A stretch of 64,000 nt of DNA from positions 160,001 to 224,000 of the forward strand of contig JBGTLG010000041.1 in the NCBI GenBank assembly GCA_041744215.1. The letters are read 5' to 3'. Every line of letters starts with the position of its first letter. Within the stretch, counting starts at the first letter, position 1. Origin of the DNA: Fimbriimonadales bacterium. Its GTDB lineage: Bacteria; Armatimonadota; Fimbriimonadia; Fimbriimonadales; ATM1. Below are positions 50,143 through 58,793 of this stretch, one piece after another. The notes under the pieces are model-generated. The model saw only the letters and a list, made by a program, of their open reading frames with translations, had not been told where the DNA came from and searched no databases. The position numbers and the translations under genes were made by a program.

Positions 50143-50349
50143 CTGAAATGCGCTCCTGCCGGCAGGAGCGATGAATTCTACTACGCCGGTCCGCCGCGAG
50201 CGGTTTGCCCAGTCGGCACACGCTGTGCCGAATCACCCAATCGCTCGAATCCTGGCCGGGCAATTGGCCCCAAAACGCCAGCCTTCGGTCGCGATTCAAG
50301 TGCGTTTGTTGTATCCTCTTAAGCTCGGCATTTCCGGAGAGGGTTGATC

Positions 50350-51711
50350 ATGACAAAAGCAGTACCGATAACGATTTCGCTGGCTGGAGCAACGTTCGCA
50401 CTCGCATTGTGGGCGGCTACAGCGCAGGGCGGTTCCCAGCACACCCCAGCCGCGCCCCGCGCAATCACCTACGCAGGCGACGTCGCAGAGATCCTCTTCG
50501 AGCACTGCGTCGAGTGCCACCGCCCTGGGGAAGTCGCGCCCTTCTCACTATTGACCTACGAAGACGCGATGAAGCGCGCACCCCTGATCGCATACTCGGT
50601 CGAATCAAAACTCATGCCGCCGTGGAAAGCAAAGCAGGGATACAACGAATTCCACGACGCGAACGTTTTGTCGCAGGACAAAGTCGCCGCACTGCGAGCT
50701 TGGGCAGATGCCGGCGCGCCGATGGGAGATAAATCTAAACTGCCGAAGCCGCCCGAATTCTCCTCGGCATGGGCGCTCGGGGAACCCGACGCGATCCTCT
50801 CTTCGCCAAAGCCCTACAAGATTAGCGCTGAAGGCCGCGACGATTACCGCAACTTCGTCATCAAGACCGACTACAAAGAAACGAAGTGGATTCGTGCGAT
50901 GGCGGTACGGCCAGACAACAAACGCGTGGTCCACCACGTCATTGCGTTTCTGGACGATTCCGGGCGCGCAATAGAATTCGAGAAAAGGCAAAACGACGGG
51001 CAGCCTGGATACTCGACATTTGGTGGCGTAGGAGTGGTGCCCAGCGGCGCGCTCGGCGGATGGGCGCCAGGGCTTCGGCCAAACGAAACACCCGATTACG
51101 CTGCTTTCGAGCTAAAACCGGGCACGACGATCGTCTTGCAGATCCACTACAACAAGACAGGAAAAGAAGAAGTCGATCAAACGCAAATCGGACTCTATTT
51201 CGCAAAAGAACCGCCGAAGCAAAAAATGAATCTCGCATGGCTCGCAAACATTGGTTTGCGCATCCCTGCCGGAAAGGAAGATCATGTTGCTAAGTGGCAA
51301 ATGAGAATCCCCGCCGACGTAACGCTTTATGGCGCAATGCCGCACATGCACCTTCTCGGCACGTGGATGAAATCTCATGCGATAACTCCCGATGGCAAGG
51401 AAGTTCCGCTGGTGTGGGTCGAAGATTGGGACTTCAATTGGCAGCTGCAATACCAGTTCGCCAAACCGATCAAACTTCCTCGTGGAAGCGTGATTCATGT
51501 CGAAGCAGGCTACGACAATTCTTCGGATAATCCGAGACAGCCCAGCGACCCCCCCCGCGAAGTGCGATGGGGCGAACAAACGACCGACGAAATGATGCTG
51601 CTCATCATTCCATACACCGTCGATGGAGTCGGTATCGCAGATAATCGCGATTACAATTCTCCGTTTCGCCCGTTCGGCGGCTCGCCCCTCGGTGGCGCAG
51701 ATCGAAACTAA
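50350..51711 (+). CDS. Exported c-type cytochrome + copper type II (PHM/DBH-like) monooxygenase
   Basis: Signal peptide, CVECH heme motif, MPPW, VVHHV, QIHY, PHMHLLG, WDFNWQ, DEM. Confidence 0.85.
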   Translation: MTKAVPITISLAGATFALALWAATAQGGSQHTPAAPRAITYAGDVAEILFEHCVECHRPGEVAPFSLLTYEDAMKRAPLIAYSVESKLMPPWKAKQGYNEFHDANVLSQDKVAALRAWADAGAPMGDKSKLPKPPEFSSAWALGEPDAILSSPKPYKISAEGRDDYRNFVIKTDYKETKWIRAMAVRPDNKRVVHHVIAFLDDSGRAIEFEKRQNDGQPGYSTFGGVGVVPSGALGGWAPGLRPNETPDYAAFELKPGTTIVLQIHYNKTGKEEVDQTQIGLYFAKEPPKQKMNLAWLANIGLRIPAGKEDHVAKWQMRIPADVTLYGAMPHMHLLGTWMKSHAITPDGKEVPLVWVEDWDFNWQLQYQFAKPIKLPRGSVIHVEAGYDNSSDNPRQPSDPPREVRWGEQTTDEMMLLIIPYTVDGVGIADNRDYNSPFRPFGGSPLGGADRN

Positions 51712-51750: not shown

Positions 51751-52854
51751 TTAGAACATCCAACCGACTTCCAACAGGAATTGCGGATACCTTCGCTCCT
51801 GAAACCGACCCTCGAGAATCAGCTTGACCGCAGAATCTCCGAAGGGAAGCACAAAACTCGTATACGGCGAAATCATCGGCCGAAAACCTGGCGCATCGCG
51901 ATAGTCGAGCCTCGCTCCGAATGCAGTAGAGAAAGAAGGAATCCAATCGATGCCCGCGCTAAGCCGCCACTCCGACGCTCCCTGTGTCGTCGCGTGCGAA
52001 AAGCCGCCGTCAAAGAAAAGATCTCCACAATTGTACTGCGCTGCAGTGCCAATCAAAAATCGTTCGTTGTTGCCCACGAATGCATGAACTCCAACTGATT
52101 GCAGCCCACGGGCCTCGTATAACTCTAAAAATGCGCCCTTTGGATTCGGCTCGAATTCGAAACTTGCAGTTGAGCGAGCTTCACTAGTAAGCGGAATGCT
52201 GAATTCACCAGGAAACGGAATGGTCAAGGCAGCATTCCACGTGCCCGCAAATTGGTGCATCGCTCTTATCGAAGGGGATCGACCAGAAAGCGAAAAGCCT
52301 CGCAACGATGTCTTGCGCGAGTTGCTTCCCGAAGTGCCGGGAAGAGAGGCCGAAAAGCTTGTAGGCTCGCCAAGATTCAGTCGGAGTGAAACGTCCAACT
52401 GCGACAGCGCGCGATACTGCCCGAATTGTAGTTGAGTGGATTTGTTGACGTCGTAGGTGAAAAACAAATCTTCAAACCGACCGCTGCGGTCACGCTTGCT
52501 GCCAGAGGAAAGCACCTCCTTGCTCAGCGCGCGCCACTCAACAAAGTAAGACCACCTATTCGACTGCCCTGCCGAAATCAACTCGATCCGATTGGCTACT
52601 CCCCGAACCGTCTTAGGATCGTTCGGGACCGTTTGAGCCATTGCACTCAACCAAAACGAAATGGGTAGGACGTCCCGGATCTTAGTCCGCGGCGGAGAGT
52701 AGTTTGAATCCGCAAAAAGCTGCCCCTTCAGATTCAGTTTTGGCGGCTGCGTGTGACAGTCCGCACAGGCCATCTTATACTCGCGGGCGAATTGCGGAAT
52801 CGCGCCTGCAATTACCGCCAGAAACGTCAAAACAACAGCAATCGATCCTCTCAT
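51751..52854 (-). CDS. Putative outer-membrane beta-barrel with N-terminal CxxCH
   Basis: Signal peptide, AIPQFAREYKMACADCHTQPPKLN, beta-strand body ending in C-terminal Phe. Confidence 0.75.
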   Translation of the reverse strand: MRGSIAVVLTFLAVIAGAIPQFAREYKMACADCHTQPPKLNLKGQLFADSNYSPPRTKIRDVLPISFWLSAMAQTVPNDPKTVRGVANRIELISAGQSNRWSYFVEWRALSKEVLSSGSKRDRSGRFEDLFFTYDVNKSTQLQFGQYRALSQLDVSLRLNLGEPTSFSASLPGTSGSNSRKTSLRGFSLSGRSPSIRAMHQFAGTWNAALTIPFPGEFSIPLTSEARSTASFEFEPNPKGAFLELYEARGLQSVGVHAFVGNNERFLIGTAAQYNCGDLFFDGGFSHATTQGASEWRLSAGIDWIPSFSTAFGARLDYRDAPGFRPMISPYTSFVLPFGDSAVKLILEGRFQERRYPQFLLEVGWMF

Positions 52855-53019
52855 GATGCCACCTTCAGGCCACAAGTGTATCGCATGCTACATTTCTTTG
52901 TCAAGTCTCATAAAGTGAGCCTATGCAAATGTAAACGCTTGAGGATTTGAGGCCTTCCGCTGACGCCTTTTATCCCCCCTCCTCGTCCCTTCCAACGGAA
53001 GCCGCATACGGAGGTGCGC

Positions 53020-53346
53020 ATGGCAGACATAGACGGCGAACTGTGGAAACACAACATGGCGAAGATCACGATCGTGGACGTAAGTGAGGACTACCGCCAT
53101 ATGCTCGACCCGATGCCTTCGCACATGTATCCCGTGGTCAAAGAGGTCTGGCTTCCCAAATACAAATTGGCCGAGCGCCTGCTCGAAGAAGGACTGATCA
53201 CAGGCTACCAATACGACTGGCATGAGGTTCCAATGGGCCGGCACGATGTTGAGCACTGGTACGTCGGAGTCGTCGCCGATGCCCTCGCGGCAGTTTCAGA
53301 CCTTGGTGCTGGCTTCCGTCCGGCGTTGGCAAATGTCATCCCTTGA
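53020..53346 (+). CDS. Hypothetical protein
   Basis: GGAGGTG SD, 108-codon ORF with genome-typical codon usage. Confidence 0.7.
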   Translation: MADIDGELWKHNMAKITIVDVSEDYRHMLDPMPSHMYPVVKEVWLPKYKLAERLLEEGLITGYQYDWHEVPMGRHDVEHWYVGVVADALAAVSDLGAGFRPALANVIP

Positions 53347-53371
53347 CGGAGGGTACAAAGTATGATAGACT
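53343..53371 (+). promoter_or_regulatory. Sigma-70 promoter of the VKOR/peptide operon
   Basis: TTGACG, 17 nt, (TGa)TAGACT, then AGGAG SD and ATG 53391. Confidence 0.65.
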
Positions 53372-53390
53372 CTCAGTACCAGCAGGAGAG

Positions 53391-54572
53391 ATGGGCTTGA
53401 TAAATCGCCTTGAAAGGTACACCACTACTCCCTTCATTGATGCCCACATAGGTCGCTGGTGGCGGTATCGGCTCGCGGCATACATTTTGGGCCTCGCCGG
53501 GATTTTCGTAGCGGGGACACTTTCGCTGTCTCATGTCTGGCACGCTCCGCTTCCGTGCGGTGTTGGTTCTGGCTGCCAAACCATATTGAACCACCCCTCG
53601 TCCTCGGTTCTGGGGGTTCCAGTGGCAGTTTACGGTCTATTCGCTTATGGTCTGATATCTACGCTGCTCGGAGTTCAACTCTTTAGAGGCAGGCTGGGGA
53701 CCCCGGATACCCTCGCCTACCTTCTTGCAGGATTCGGTGCCGTAGTAAGCCTCACGATGACCGCGTACTCGGTTGGTGTAGTCCGCCAAGTGTGCACCTG
53801 GTGCTTGGCTTCCGCAGTCATAATGTGTCTGTTGCTCTTTTGTATGGGACGGTACCATTACTTGAGTGCAATATCGAGTGATTTTACGGGACAAAATCGG
53901 GGGGGGGCTGAAACCTCGCGGGAGTGTGTTTACTGTTACCGCTCTTCCAGTCATAGTGCTGGGTGCCCTCGTATGGCGAGCCTTCACTCTCCCCCATGGG
54001 GGTGATCGTGGAGTTGATCAGTCCGTTTTATCAAACATTCCTCTCTCCGATCTGATAACGACAGACTCGCGTCGCTTTGGGCCCCTGGTGCTCCATACAC
54101 CCTGATCGTCTTTAGCGACCTCGGATGCCCCGCCTGTCATTACTACTGGCCGCATGTGGTGCGAGTAACAGAGGAAACCGATAGGCTCGCCGTCGTGCTG
54201 CGTCATTTGCCATTGCGTCTGAATTCTCCGGCATTTTCTGCGGCTGTGGCCGCAGAGTCTGATTGCTCAGATGCAGAATTCTGGCGGTTCCTGTGGACTG
54301 CGGCTCGGAATGGGCTGCATAGCTCGGAGGACTTCGGCACCGCGTTAAGAAGTATATGTGGCGACGGAAGCGAACGACTGTTGAGCGTTGCGGGTCAGCA
54401 GCGTGTCATGCGCGACCGCGCGCTCGCGGCAGATCTCAAAGTGCCTGGAACACCCTGGATGATCCTGATTGGCCCCGGTGACTCTTTTAGGCAAGAAGTT
54501 TCCATGGAACAACTCGTTGAGCTGGTGGGTGAGAAATCCGTCGCTTCTCCGACGAGGGCAGCAGAATACTAG
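53391..54572 (+). pseudogene. VKOR-DsbA fusion disrupted by two frameshifts (or sequencing errors)
   Basis: VKOR motifs PCGVGSGC…GVPVAVYG…CTWC. Frame change at the G9 run 53899-53907, a TM/linker in the shifted frame, a second change near 54078-54085, then DsbA APYTLIVFSDLGCPACH…RHLPL…GTP. Confidence 0.8.
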
Positions 54573-54605
54573 ATTTTGTGACAGACAACACCGGAGGTAA
54601 AACCA

Positions 54606-54854
54606 ATGATGAAACCAAATGAAAAAATCGGCCGCAACCGATCATCAAGAGCGAAAATCCACGCTCTTGTGTGTGTTGGGGCGCTCTTGGCGGCGGTCGC
54701 CGCCCTCGCTGCTCCTCTTGCGCTGGACGAGGATCCTCTCCCTCCTGTTCCGTGCAGTAACGGCCCAGGGGCGACTTGCGTTGGGACCTGTGACAACGGT
54801 AACGTTTGTCACAGGCCTTCGAGCCCTGGTAACTGCACTTGCAACTGGAGCTAA
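54606..54854 (+). CDS. Small secreted six-cysteine peptide
   Basis: GGAGG SD, basic N-region + hydrophobic signal, C-x7-C-x3-C-x5-C-x8-C-x-C. Confidence 0.75.
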   Translation: MMKPNEKIGRNRSSRAKIHALVCVGALLAAVAALAAPLALDEDPLPPVPCSNGPGATCVGTCDNGNVCHRPSSPGNCTCNWS

Positions 54855-54856
54855 CA

Positions 54857-56926
54857 ATGAGTGGAAGATGGGCGCGATTCGCGGTCGCATTTGTGCTCGT
54901 GACTTGGCCGGCGCTCGACGGCCTTGCGACGCCATGCGAGTCCGTCCGCGCCCATCTACTAAGTTTATCGGATGATCCAAAGCGGCCTTTGCAGGCAGCT
55001 AATCCTCTCGCGAACGAAATTGTCATCCTCGACCCGGGTGATGCGTCGACGCAGGAGATACTCGACAGGCTGGCGTTCGTGTTGCGTGCAACTTGGAAAG
55101 ACAAAGAACTCCGTCGGGATTCAGAGGCAGTTCAGGCGTTGCAATCTTTGGATCGAGATGCACGGATAAGGACAATAACTGCATTCCTGAAAGAGGTGAC
55201 TGTCCTTCCAGACACCAACAACGTGAATGCCTACGCGAGCGCGTTTCGCGCGTCGCTTGACTCAGCTGAAGAGCTTATCCGAAATGGGTACACCTCGGTC
55301 ACACAGCCGAACTCGGCGCTACGGGTCCCAGCGTGGGACCATGTTCAAACGCCAGCACGAGTAACACTTGCCAGAGTTCTTACTGCGCTCGGCTCGGAGA
55401 CGCTGGCAGACCTGCCTCGCTATGAAACCGTCGTTTTTTCAGATCGCCCCACGGCCGTCCAACGTGCGATGCCCGATGCGGCGCAACTGAAGAGTTGGAT
55501 TGCGCAACTCGCTCCGCTTGGCGCGGAAGCAGTTCGCGACCGTCCCCCGGGCGAAGCCATAACCGATGGCATCGTTCTGTCAACTGAGAGGCTTGTCCAG
55601 TCCGTAAACCAAGGCGGCATTGCGCGAATCCACCTTTTTCTTACTCGGAGAGCGGATGAAATCACCTGTCTTCTGATGTTGTATGGAAGCCGAGGAGAGG
55701 AGTTGGGCATTGCCGGTCGTGCGGTGCTGCGAATCCCCATCCAGCCTCGTGGCATGCGAGTCGCGCCAGACATTCCTGACGTAGACGGCACTCTCCCACT
55801 CTCAGGCGCGAACCAGGAGTTCCATCTAATCTCCGGCCTTGGCCTCCCAACGACTCCAATAGGAATCGAGCAGCTCCGACCGAGTTTCGAGTTTCAAGAG
55901 CGGATGTTTCGTCCGACCAAAAACGATCCATTGGGCTTCGGCGTAAATGATGTGCTTTTGGCCATCGGAAGGCGGGCTGGGCTGAGGGTAATGGCGTGTG
56001 TCCAGGATTCCGCATTGGACGCATTTCGCGACTGCGTCAAGAGACAGGTTGTCGATTTCCTCGACTTTCTAGCCGCATTGTCGGACGAGCACGAAATCAT
56101 CGTGCAAGACAATTGGTTGTTAGTGAGGCCCAAAAACTCGCTCGAATCGGAACGTAGCCGCATTCCGCGTGCCGCGTTAGAGAAGCTGATGATGCAGGCA
56201 AACGACCAGAAGCACCTCTCCCTCCGCGCGTGGGCGTTGCACCATTACGAGAGCAAAGTTGCGGCGCATCGTAATCCGATCGCGCGCACATACCGCTCGT
56301 TTATAAACCATCTTTGGCAACGTTCGTATCCTGTCGTTGATTCATTCGAAGGCGACGACTATCCGCTACCGGTGCTGATGTTTTTAGGGTCGCTCTCGGA
56401 AGCGGAGTACGAAGCACTGATGCACGGACGAGCCAGTTTCGATCTAGGGGGCTTGCGGATCGATCAGCGTACGTGGATGCGTGAGATTCTAGGTTACCGG
56501 CACCTACTCTTGAGGAGGGATCCAAGCTCGGACGGCCCCGACTGGTTATTGACCGGTAGCGAAGCCGTGCCAGAAGTCTCCCTCAGAGGAGCGGTGTTGC
56601 GGTCAGACCTGACATCAGCGAAGGCAATCGTAAACCAAACCATGAGTTTCGATGCTATGAAGGGCCTACTGAATTCGCCGAACACGATTGAAGAAGTTTG
56701 GCGGTCGTTCGGTTCGTGGCCAGAATTGGACGTGACCCTAGCCATGAACGGTAGATATGTTGTCGGCCATCAACAGTTTGTCAGGATCACGATAACTGCT
56801 CGAACAGGAATAGTACGGCATTTAGGCATACGCGGCGAGTTCTTGCCTACAACTGAGGCACTCGTGTTTCGTGACTTGCCTGAAGATGTGCGGCGGGCAT
56901 TCGGGGGAAGCGACCGATCAAACTGA
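54857..56926 (+). CDS. Large exported hypothetical protein
   Basis: Signal-peptide-like N-terminus, 689-codon ORF starting 2 nt after the peptide stop, GGAG SD. Confidence 0.75.
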
Positions 56927-57454
56927 TTCGACCGTTATCTTGTCGTTCGAATAAACACAGATATCCGCTGAGATCAGAAGCGCCTCTCGCGCAATATCCT
57001 CGACAGACAAAGTCGTGTGAGCCATCAGAGCACGAGCAGCCGCCAAAGCGAAAGGCCCACCCGATCCAATTCCCGCAACCCCTTCGTCAGGCTCGATCAC
57101 GTTGCCATCACCAGAAACCAGCAACAGCGCATCCGACGACGCAACGATCATCATCGCGTTCAGTTGCCGGAGAATCTTGTCCGTCCGCCAATCCTTGGCA
57201 AACTCCACAGCCGCGCGCCGCACGTTCCCAGCGTACTGCTCGAGCTTCGCCTCGAATCGCTCCGTCAAAGCCTGAGCGTCTGCGACGCTCCCAGCGAAAC
57301 CGGCGATGACATTTCCACCTGGCCCTATCCGCCGCACCTTCTTCGCCGTATGCTTGATCGCGACACCCTGATCGCCAAGCGTCACCTGCCCGTCAGCGCC
57401 AACCGCAACCTTCCCATCTCGCATCACGCCGATTACTGTCGTCGAACGAATCAT
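56918..57454 (-). CDS. hslV: ATP-dependent protease subunit HslV
   Basis: [43 protein letters not shown]. Confidence 0.96.
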
Positions 57455-57518
57455 CTCACGGAGTTTACCGATACGCTCGCCAGACGGGAGTGGAGTCGGT
57501 TAGTGCCAGAATCCCCGC

Positions 57519-58793
57519 GTGCTAAGGCACACCGATCTAAGACCCCAGTGGCTCGTCGCGGTCGTTGCCGCGATCGTTATTCTCGCGGCGATGGCCTTCA
57601 GCCTAACAGGCGCATTCCCAGGAGGCGTCTGGTGGCTCGGATTCGGCGCCCTCGCAGCATCCCTCGCGATGATCGGTGCCCTCACCCGGATGCGCTCCGC
57701 CGCCCAGGACTGGATCAGGGAACTGCGATCCGCCAAATCGGAATTGCGCGCTCTCACAGCGGAAATCGACGCTTCCGAACGCAGGATGCAAAACCTCGCC
57801 GACGGACTCGACGCGCCCGTTTTTGTGTGCAGCCGCGAAGGCGCGATTCGCTGGGCGAACGAAGCCGCAAAGAGGTTCTTCAACTTCGAAGACCTCATCG
57901 GGCGCACCCTTCTCGAGGTCTCCCTCAGCGTCGATCTTCAACAGCTCGGCATCCGCGCAGCCCAAGAGGACGCGCTCGTCAGGGGCGAGATCCAGCTGAG
58001 CCACCCGCAAGAGCGCATCGTCGAAACAAAGGCCTACCCCGCCGCGGATGATCCAGAACTCCTGTTTGTCGTCGCTAACGATATCACCGAGCTTCGCCGC
58101 CTCGAACGCGTCCGAACAGACTTCGTCGCCAACGCAAGCCACGAACTGCGAACCCCCATGGCCTCCATCAGGTCCATGGCGGAGACAATTCTCCAGGACG
58201 ACGAACTGCCGGAAGAAACACGCCAGCGCTTTCTTAGCCGGATCATCTTCGAGGTCGACCGCCTAACCGCGCTCTCAGAAGACCTGCTCGTCCTCTCAGC
58301 AGCAGAGTCGCAAAAGTCGGCAGTCGAATCGCTCGATTTCGCAGACGTCGTCCGCTATGTAGCGCAAGACTTCATAGTCCGCGCCAAAGACAAGGGAATA
58401 CAGTTCGAAGTCGAAGCCCCGGAAACGCTCCTCCTTTATGGCGACGAAGGTCAACTGGTCCAAGTGGTACAGAATCTCATGAGCAACGCCGTCCGATATA
58501 CACAAGAAGGAAGAATCGATGTATCACTTCGCACCGACGGCAATGAATCGATCCTCGAGGTCAAGGATACGGGCCTCGGAATCTCGAGCGAGCACGCGCC
58601 CCGAATTTTCGAACGGTTCTATCGCGCGGATCGTGCGCGTTCCCGCGAGACCGGAGGTACCGGCCTCGGGCTTTCCATCGTAAAGCACATCGTCAGCGCC
58701 CATGGTGGAACGATCGAGGTCGAAAGCGAACTCAACGTCGGCTCGATGTTTCGCGTTAGGTTGCCGCTGCGCCGGGGCGATCAGGCGGCATAA
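57519..58793 (+). CDS. PhoR-like sensor histidine kinase (TM-PAS-HisKA-HATPase)
   Basis: RTDFVANASHELRTP, NLMSNA, DTGLGI, IFERFYRAD.ARSRETGGTGLGL. Confidence 0.92.
   Translation: MLRHTDLRPQWLVAVVAAIVILAAMAFSLTGAFPGGVWWLGFGALAASLAMIGALTRMRSAAQDWIRELRSAKSELRALTAEIDASERRMQNLADGLDAPVFVCSREGAIRWANEAAKRFFNFEDLIGRTLLEVSLSVDLQQLGIRAAQEDALVRGEIQLSHPQERIVETKAYPAADDPELLFVVANDITELRRLERVRTDFVANASHELRTPMASIRSMAETILQDDELPEETRQRFLSRIIFEVDRLTALSEDLLVLSAAESQKSAVESLDFADVVRYVAQDFIVRAKDKGIQFEVEAPETLLLYGDEGQLVQVVQNLMSNAVRYTQEGRIDVSLRTDGNESILEVKDTGLGISSEHAPRIFERFYRADRARSRETGGTGLGLSIVKHIVSAHGGTIEVESELNVGSMFRVRLPLRRGDQAA

Follow-up and report, generated by a model that had tools for sequence, protein, structure and literature searches.

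Oxidoreductases of the VKOR type carry a pair of cysteines in a loop and a CxxC motif at the start of the fourth helix, and they occur either as VKOR-thioredoxin/DsbA fusions of the Synechococcus type or, as in mycobacteria, with VKOR and DsbA as separate proteins. Here, we have analysed a locus in which coding units for an oxidase of this type, a small cysteine-rich protein and a large protein predicted to be exported stand side by side, at positions 53,343 to 56,926 of a 64,000-nucleotide stretch (the window) from a Fimbriimonadales bacterium of the Armatimonadota. The window is C41:160001-224000 (contig JBGTLG010000041.1) of a 2.68-Mb genome in 42 contigs that is 93% complete (G000), and the sequencing runs containing its DNA are labelled hot springs metagenome. 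In described systems, exported proteins are oxidised by DsbA, and DsbB or VKOR returns DsbA to its oxidised state, as stated in PMC11208910; the general role of bacterial VKOR/DsbA oxidases is also given in PMC12421883. That a peptide may come with thiol-disulfide oxidoreductases of its own is a known concept, as PMC4336743 describes such enzymes within the sublancin cluster, sunA-sunT-bdbA-sunS-bdbB.

The cassette consists of three closely spaced coding units on the + strand, located between a small hypothetical gene (53014-53346) and a convergent hslV (56918-57454, identified by its Proteasome Pfam match). A first-pass annotation of this DNA had proposed three tightly spaced genes in this setting; the three units and their flanks are as it described, but the VKOR-DsbA unit is not one gene. 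We observed that the order of a VKOR-DsbA gene, a cysteine-rich open reading frame (ORF) of about 80 codons and a gene for a protein of about 700 residues recurs in G001, G015, G009 and the metagenome contig L053. Among 21 loci of the large-protein family that were read, five have the full triple (the window, G001:C15, G015:C223, G009:C6 and L053), one has the peptide and large genes as a pair (G115), three are deletion derivatives, and the other 12 have neither oxidase nor peptide. Conserved co-occurrence, on which the first-pass annotation had staked its proposal, was thus found in five of the 21 loci, in the same order each time. A search with a five-sequence alignment matched 5 of 19 genome-contig stretches, all of them known loci, and 2 of 132 metagenome-contig stretches. 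Our reading, of moderate confidence, is that of an accessory cassette of the envelope: a private oxidase would have the mini-protein as its dedicated substrate, and the mini-protein would probably be a partner of the large protein.

That the cassette oxidase appears to be a private paralogue of a housekeeping enzyme came from a comparison of copies within the order. VKOR-DsbA is found in 139 of its 151 genomes, mostly in single copy. At the loci outside the cassette, an mnmA-like gene lies downstream in 22 of 26 cases and a six-cysteine ORF in none of the 26. In a tree of DsbA domains, those of the five cassettes group as a single clade (support 0.886), separate from the housekeeping copies; the window and L053 domains are sisters (0.997), and the genome's own second copy falls elsewhere. 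The tree of the large proteins, ((window, L053), (G001, G015)) with G009 outside, has the same branching order, so that the genes are seen to have diverged together. A single cassette clade and the matching order of the two trees argue that the cassette has been inherited as one unit. Taken with the conserved triple, they make it a fair reading that the oxidase is dedicated to a small exported protein locked by disulfides, as the first-pass annotation had suggested, with the reservation that the oxidase of this very genome is broken as a fusion.

The second unit encodes an 82-residue precursor (54606..54854, from the ORF and its relatives), and a GGAGG ribosome-binding site lies 8 nt before its ATG (54593..54597, read from the sequence). 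The precursor has a basic N-region, a hydrophobic helix at about residues 18-40 and a mature part with cysteines C50, C58, C62, C68, C77 and C79. The secreted six-cysteine peptide of the first-pass annotation is therefore confirmed in its composition, with seven cysteines in total, one in the hydrophobic N-terminal part and six in the C-terminal 33 residues, while export is predicted. Relatives stand at the equivalent position in G001, G015, G009, L053 and G115. All nine distinct members of the family end in C-x-C, and eight of the nine have 6 or 8 cysteines in the mature part. Between the peptide and its closest relative (P0157), 18 of 20 differences fall in residues 1-43 and the other two in residues 44-81, as would be expected if the signal changes fast and the mature domain is constrained. 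Since the ORF has a GGAGG site, relatives with conserved cysteines and the C-x-C end, and differences confined mostly to residues 1-43, it is in all likelihood a real gene under selection.

For the peptide family, a profile search of 5.8 billion proteins returned eight clusters, two of which are hypothetical proteins of one Fimbriimonadales metagenome-assembled genome label. The peptide has no Pfam, NCBIfam or PHROG match, and its best score in the ESM Atlas, 0.80, is uninformative. A profile of six peptides matched EGF chains of Notch and factor VII weakly, at E 0.3-1.1. Nine weaker profile matches in the order cover the hydrophobic N-terminal part of the profile alone; eight are in other genomes (E 0.0015-0.0096) and one is in this genome at C15 (E 0.0039). 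A match in G129 was rejected, as it sits inside a prepilin-like ORF of 325 residues.

The third unit encodes a protein of 689 residues (54857..56926) that belongs to an unnamed, Armatimonadota-rich family, as judged from the ORF, profile search and AlphaFold2. Its ATG lies 2 nt past the stop codon of the peptide gene, and in L053 and L014 the two ORFs overlap. The earlier description of an exported protein without recognisable motif was borne out: its N-terminus is hydrophobic, which predicts export, and it has no match in Pfam, NCBIfam or PHROG. Fourteen members of the family and 50 further representatives likewise gave no match, and a sequence profile gave chance-level matches to the PDB. 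A word-based homologue search returned the protein itself and P0002, its closest relative at 66% identity. A profile search of 1.84 billion representatives gave 3,637 proteins with E<=0.001, of which 1,594 had E<=1e-30; almost all are 650-780 residues long, and, as a lower bound, the family holds at least 3,637 clusters at 50% identity. Its ESM Atlas clusters are named 'hypothetical protein', and their commonest phylum is Armatimonadota. Among related genomes, 22 of 41 have a match (a tally that includes G011), with up to 7 matched stretches per genome, which are not copy numbers. Four further, distant paralogues are encoded in this genome, and no peptide or VKOR gene adjoins any of them.

AlphaFold2 modelled the whole protein with a predicted local distance difference test score (pLDDT) of 84.5 and a predicted template modelling score (pTM) of 0.84; residues 296-689 reached pLDDT 92.0 and pTM 0.90. 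For both models, Foldseek searches of the PDB and BFVD stayed without a match at E<=0.001, and the wide VIA-align comparison placed none of 48,161 chains at Z>=5. Below these thresholds, residues 25-96 superpose weakly on the STN subdomain of PupR (6ovm_R; Z 4.2, root-mean-square deviation 2.6, 65 aligned) and also on the N0 domains of PilQ and EscC, and residues ~305-430 superpose weakly on EscC, the GspD N0 domain, VirB7 and several phage baseplate proteins (Z 2.6-3.3). An STN-bearing cluster was matched in the ESM Atlas at 0.87. The STN family PF07660 has no Pfam match in the 14 members or 50 representatives. The sole coherent structural signal in these models is thus a weak N0/STN-like one, for two domains.

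For export, the relation of oxidase and substrate, binding to the large protein and the role in the cell, we infer the following from the gene arrangement and from established Dsb biology. The cassette would be an accessory cell-envelope unit of Fimbriimonadales-type Armatimonadota that is inherited whole. In the product of the first gene, VKOR would take oxidising power from membrane quinone, and the fifth helix would set the DsbA domain outside the cytoplasm. The ~80-residue precursor would be exported via Sec by its N-terminal signal or anchor, and its C-terminal part of about 40 residues would be locked by three disulfides (four in some relatives) that the private VKOR-DsbA introduces. The third gene, which is probably coupled translationally to the second, would supply an exported multidomain protein of ~665 residues, two of whose domains weakly resemble N0/STN domains. 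In view of this coupling and of the unvarying adjacency of the two genes, the mini-protein would most probably bind this large protein as a ligand, a subunit or a regulator.

The oxidase of the window was claimed by the first-pass annotation as one VKOR-DsbA fusion gene. We observed instead that it is split by two frameshifts, with its fifth helix in another frame. The VKOR ORF (53391..54005, 204 residues from ATG) has a core intact to about 53898, and its last ~35 codons are an out-of-frame read-through to a TGA stop at 54003-54005. It gives a PF07884 match of 63.1 bits (cut-off 27.5), over residues 46-167 when counted in ORF 53343-54002, and is 43% identical to the intact fusion of L053. The first frameshift lies at a run of nine G (G9, 53899..53907) and the second, compensating one at GGGCCCC (54079..54085). 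Between them, the other frame (53908..54084, inside ORF 53866-54105) encodes the linker, the fifth transmembrane helix and the beginning of the DsbA domain. The DsbA-like thioredoxin-fold domain follows at 54090..54572, and its stretch 54090-54569 matches PF01323 with 33.6 bits against a cut-off of 25.6; it is without a start codon or membrane anchor of its own, and its CPAC motif and GTP cis-Pro loop align with those of cassette and housekeeping copies. Read straight through, the gene has two TGA stops and falls into three pieces in two frames.

The piece in the other frame aligns with the intact fusion of L053 (BLASTP, 27 of 67 residues or 40% identical, E 3e-14), so that these are real frameshifts in a formerly single gene. 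Recoding of TGA is ruled out by the same match and by the G009 copy, which has TGA, TAG and TAA stops. In an independent assembly, the Logan contig of the probable source run (X1), the sequence is identical over 53300-57000 at depth 20, and in a Logan contig of a second sample (X2) the second frameshift site is unchanged, which argues that the frameshifts are not one assembler's artefact. This comparison used contigs, and those of X2 and X3 do not cover 53826-53970, where the G9 run lies; to judge from record lengths of about 151, the reads were probably short. The oxidase of the window should therefore be annotated as a frameshifted gene and not as a fusion protein. As the oxidase is cut twice, the peptide, if it is still made here, would have to rely for its oxidation on the second VKOR-DsbA of the genome, which is an intact open frame of 383 codons without stops on contig C33.

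Damage of this kind is also observed in relatives. The G009 oxidase has two frame changes bracketing the same helix and five in-frame stops of all three kinds, and the G001 oxidase has a single frame change. The cassette oxidases of L053 and G015 are intact, with the VKOR core, fifth helix and DsbA domain in one protein. Compared with L014, L054 has a deletion of 1,219 nt that spans the entire peptide gene and the greater part of the oxidase gene; over the large gene and the flank downstream of it, the two loci are 99.2% identical. L018 has the gene order of L054, and in L017 both genes are missing between flanks that are common to L053. The large protein, which persists without the other two and belongs to a family mostly without the peptide, thus appears to be the core, and the peptide and oxidase an accessory add-on that is often lost.

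These and other observations weigh against the mini-protein as substrate of a private oxidase and partner of the large protein. In the window and in G009 the oxidase is broken, in G001 it is interrupted, and three loci have lost it together with the peptide, which implies that the add-on is dispensable. What links the peptide and oxidase to the large protein is their position. The large proteins contain few cysteines, none of them conserved, so that nothing in them calls for an oxidase, and their resemblance to N0/STN domains is weak (Z 2.6-4.2). One member of the peptide family (P0158) has five cysteines in its mature part. Signal cleavage was judged by eye, and the peptide could stay anchored in the membrane. 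Finally, the cassette may be decaying in this genome.

If this last point is carried to its end, the cassette here would be a decaying remnant, in which the oxidase would be a pseudogene and the other two genes would be disappearing or already functionless. We regard this as unlikely. The frameshifts in the window, the stops in G009, the deletions in L054, L017 and L018 and a degraded terminase gene beside the L053 cassette are what decay would leave. The peptide and large ORFs of the window are intact, however, the mature peptide part is nearly identical in P0157, and the intact second oxidase could serve the peptide. Moreover, the breaks are probably recent, because VKOR still keeps its loop cysteines (PCGVGSGC) and active-site CTWC, and the detached DsbA domain is still open over 160 codons with CPAC and the cis-Pro loop.

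The cassette appears to be old as a unit yet very variable. Between the window and G001, which is of the same genus, flanking proteins are 64-97% identical, while VKOR is 46%, DsbA 38% and the large protein 27% identical, and the two cassettes lie on opposite sides of hslV. At G001:C15, the 3.6-kb cassette is flanked by a direct repeat of ~53 bp from the start region of a histidine-kinase gene (L013:2080-2134, L013:5776-5830); no direct repeats border the cassette in this window. The large genes of L053 and L017 share 88% identity over the first ~170 nt (L053:3489-3661), and the rest is 42% identical at the protein level, which suggests a mosaic gene whose 5' end is conserved and whose body has been replaced or evolves fast. 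At L017:6256-7701, on the - strand, a gene for the large subunit of a phage terminase (phrog_2, E 2e-44) is found immediately upstream of the cassette site, and the homologous stretch at L053:~400-1826 is degraded, without a long open frame. Prepilin-like genes and genes for secreted proteins with 12-13 cysteines are found near both loci; the window has no prepilin-like gene. P0002 and the G001-type peptide P0155 both list five contigs, the longest of 29,291 bases, and one organism may carry both cassette types next to each other.

Such divergence fits genes of conflict, and it bears on the proposal that the cassette folds a bacteriocin, signal or inhibitor peptide by dedicated oxidation, with the large protein as receptor, immunity factor or partner. 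A small, exported, disulfide-rich peptide does adjoin a private oxidase, presence and absence differ between near-identical strains, and the oxidoreductases that PMC4336743 places within the sublancin cluster are a precedent. The gene content argues otherwise. According to their ORF lists, none of the six cassettes has an ABC exporter, a C39 leader peptidase, a modifying enzyme or a small membrane immunity gene; they contain only the triple (five) or the peptide and large genes (one), and no Pfam, NCBIfam or PHROG match of the bacteriocin type or that of ribosomally synthesised and post-translationally modified peptides (RiPPs) was found. The N-terminus is of the Sec type, without a double-glycine leader; Sec crosses the cytoplasmic membrane only, and the cassette has no gene for passing an outer membrane, if these bacteria have one. 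An exported protein of ~700 residues, from a family of thousands that is mostly without the peptide, and one that survives the loss of oxidase and peptide, is unlike an immunity protein, and a reading of it as receptor or immunity factor for the peptide probably reverses the dependence between the two. We find this proposal very unlikely, with nothing in the cassettes in favour of a bacteriocin or RiPP.

The sites of the frame changes raise another possibility, that a homopolymer tract in the linker between VKOR and helix 5 acts as a phase-variable switch for the private oxidase and hence for folding of the mini-protein. The run is inside the coding region and exactly at the frame change in the window (G9, 53899-53907) and in G001 (C12 in the equivalent linker; L013), and a T7 run coincides with one of the two changes in G009 (L015). 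In G001, a change in the length of the C12 run would restore an in-frame fusion. Runs of G or C of at least 9 are scarce in the 2.68-Mb genome, with 8 observed against 42 expected from composition. However, no variation in tract length was seen in the contigs compared, where the single run covering the tract shows G9. The second frameshift of the window, away from any long run, would keep the catalytic domain out of frame whatever the tract does, the L053 and G015 oxidases are intact, and where selection on a gene is relaxed, long tracts are also simply prone to mutation. We think a switch highly improbable, about as much so as the bacteriocin, signal or inhibitor proposal. Least probable of all is the wider conjecture of a new class of periplasmic N0-domain proteins, widespread in Armatimonadota, for which the mini-protein would serve as a disulfide-locked ligand or subunit, its folding gated by the slippage-switched oxidase, in a contingency system that changes an envelope structure, e.g. 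one that is phage-exposed or associated with pilus or secretion.

As for the sequence around the cassette, the promoter named by the first-pass annotation, TTGACG-17-TAGACT, is present at 53343..53371 (9/12 matches, with a TG-extended -10), and it is placed suitably for a transcript start ahead of a ribosome-binding-site-like AGGAGAG and the ATG at 53391. The count of such sites in 52800-57600 equals chance, with 2 observed against 2.1 +/- 1.5 in shuffled sequence, and gives it no statistical support. The cassette genes have a GC content at third codon positions (GC3) of 0.556-0.592; the immediate flanks lie at 0.635-0.717, and the median over the genome is 0.625 (sd 0.048). The cassette does have more A/T-ending codons than its flanks, as had been noted by eye, but its values stay inside the genome range, at the 3rd to 20th percentile. 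No Rfam match was found in 52000-58000. The 3' end of the large gene overlaps hslV by 9 nt (56918-56926), with no terminator-like site between the two. On the other side lies an adjacent exported pair bearing CxxCH, at 50344-51711 (+) and 51751-52875 (-), which is kept beside the G001 locus (86% and 64% identity); one of the pair has a weak Cu2_monoox_C match (E 0.0032) and the other is without a family.

Among the literature matches listed, we found no description of the three-gene set, the mini-protein family, the ~700-residue family or a Fimbriimonadales VKOR. Through the cassette, a very large dark family becomes approachable for the first time; it comprises at least 3,637 clusters, mostly from Armatimonadota, with confident models and no solved counterpart. 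A subset of this family is tied to a tiny protein with three predicted disulfides and a putative private oxidase, so that partner and function could be tested with three genes that can be cloned from uncultured thermophiles. The cassette also adds a clear case to an emerging pattern, in which this lineage would keep substrate-specific copies of VKOR-DsbA, quickly gained, broken and lost. For annotation, it is a warning that what reads as a fusion protein in this genome is a frameshifted gene.

Among known domains, EGF is a tentative comparison for the mini-protein, whose spacing C-x3-C-x5-C-x8-C-x-C resembles, by inspection, that of EGF C1-C5, but whose sixth cysteine is placed otherwise. Two regions of the large protein superpose weakly on the N0/STN proteins, which include secretins, anti-sigma regulators of the FecR/PupR type, VirB7/DotD lipoproteins and phage baseplate hubs. 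Unlike these, the large protein has no secretin barrel, TonB-dependent barrel or anti-sigma module, and its remainder matches nothing solved. With the VKOR-thioredoxin/DsbA oxidases, the cassette shares the VKOR core, the loop cysteine pair and CxxC, and a DsbA-like CPAC domain with its cis-Pro loop, and in the relatives L053 and G015 the fifth helix joins both domains. The cassette copy differs in being a second, cassette-bound paralogue, here frameshifted twice. The sublancin (glycocin) cluster of the Bacillus subtilis prophage SPbeta likewise places a small, disulfide-bonded exported peptide beside its own oxidoreductases (PMC4336743). An ABC transporter with a leader protease, a glycosyltransferase and an immunity gene also belong to that cluster and were found in none of the six cassettes. 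The sublancin oxidase is the DsbB-like BdbB, where the cassette oxidase is of the VKOR-DsbA type. In place of the further sublancin genes, the cassette has a protein of ~700 residues that is predicted to be exported.

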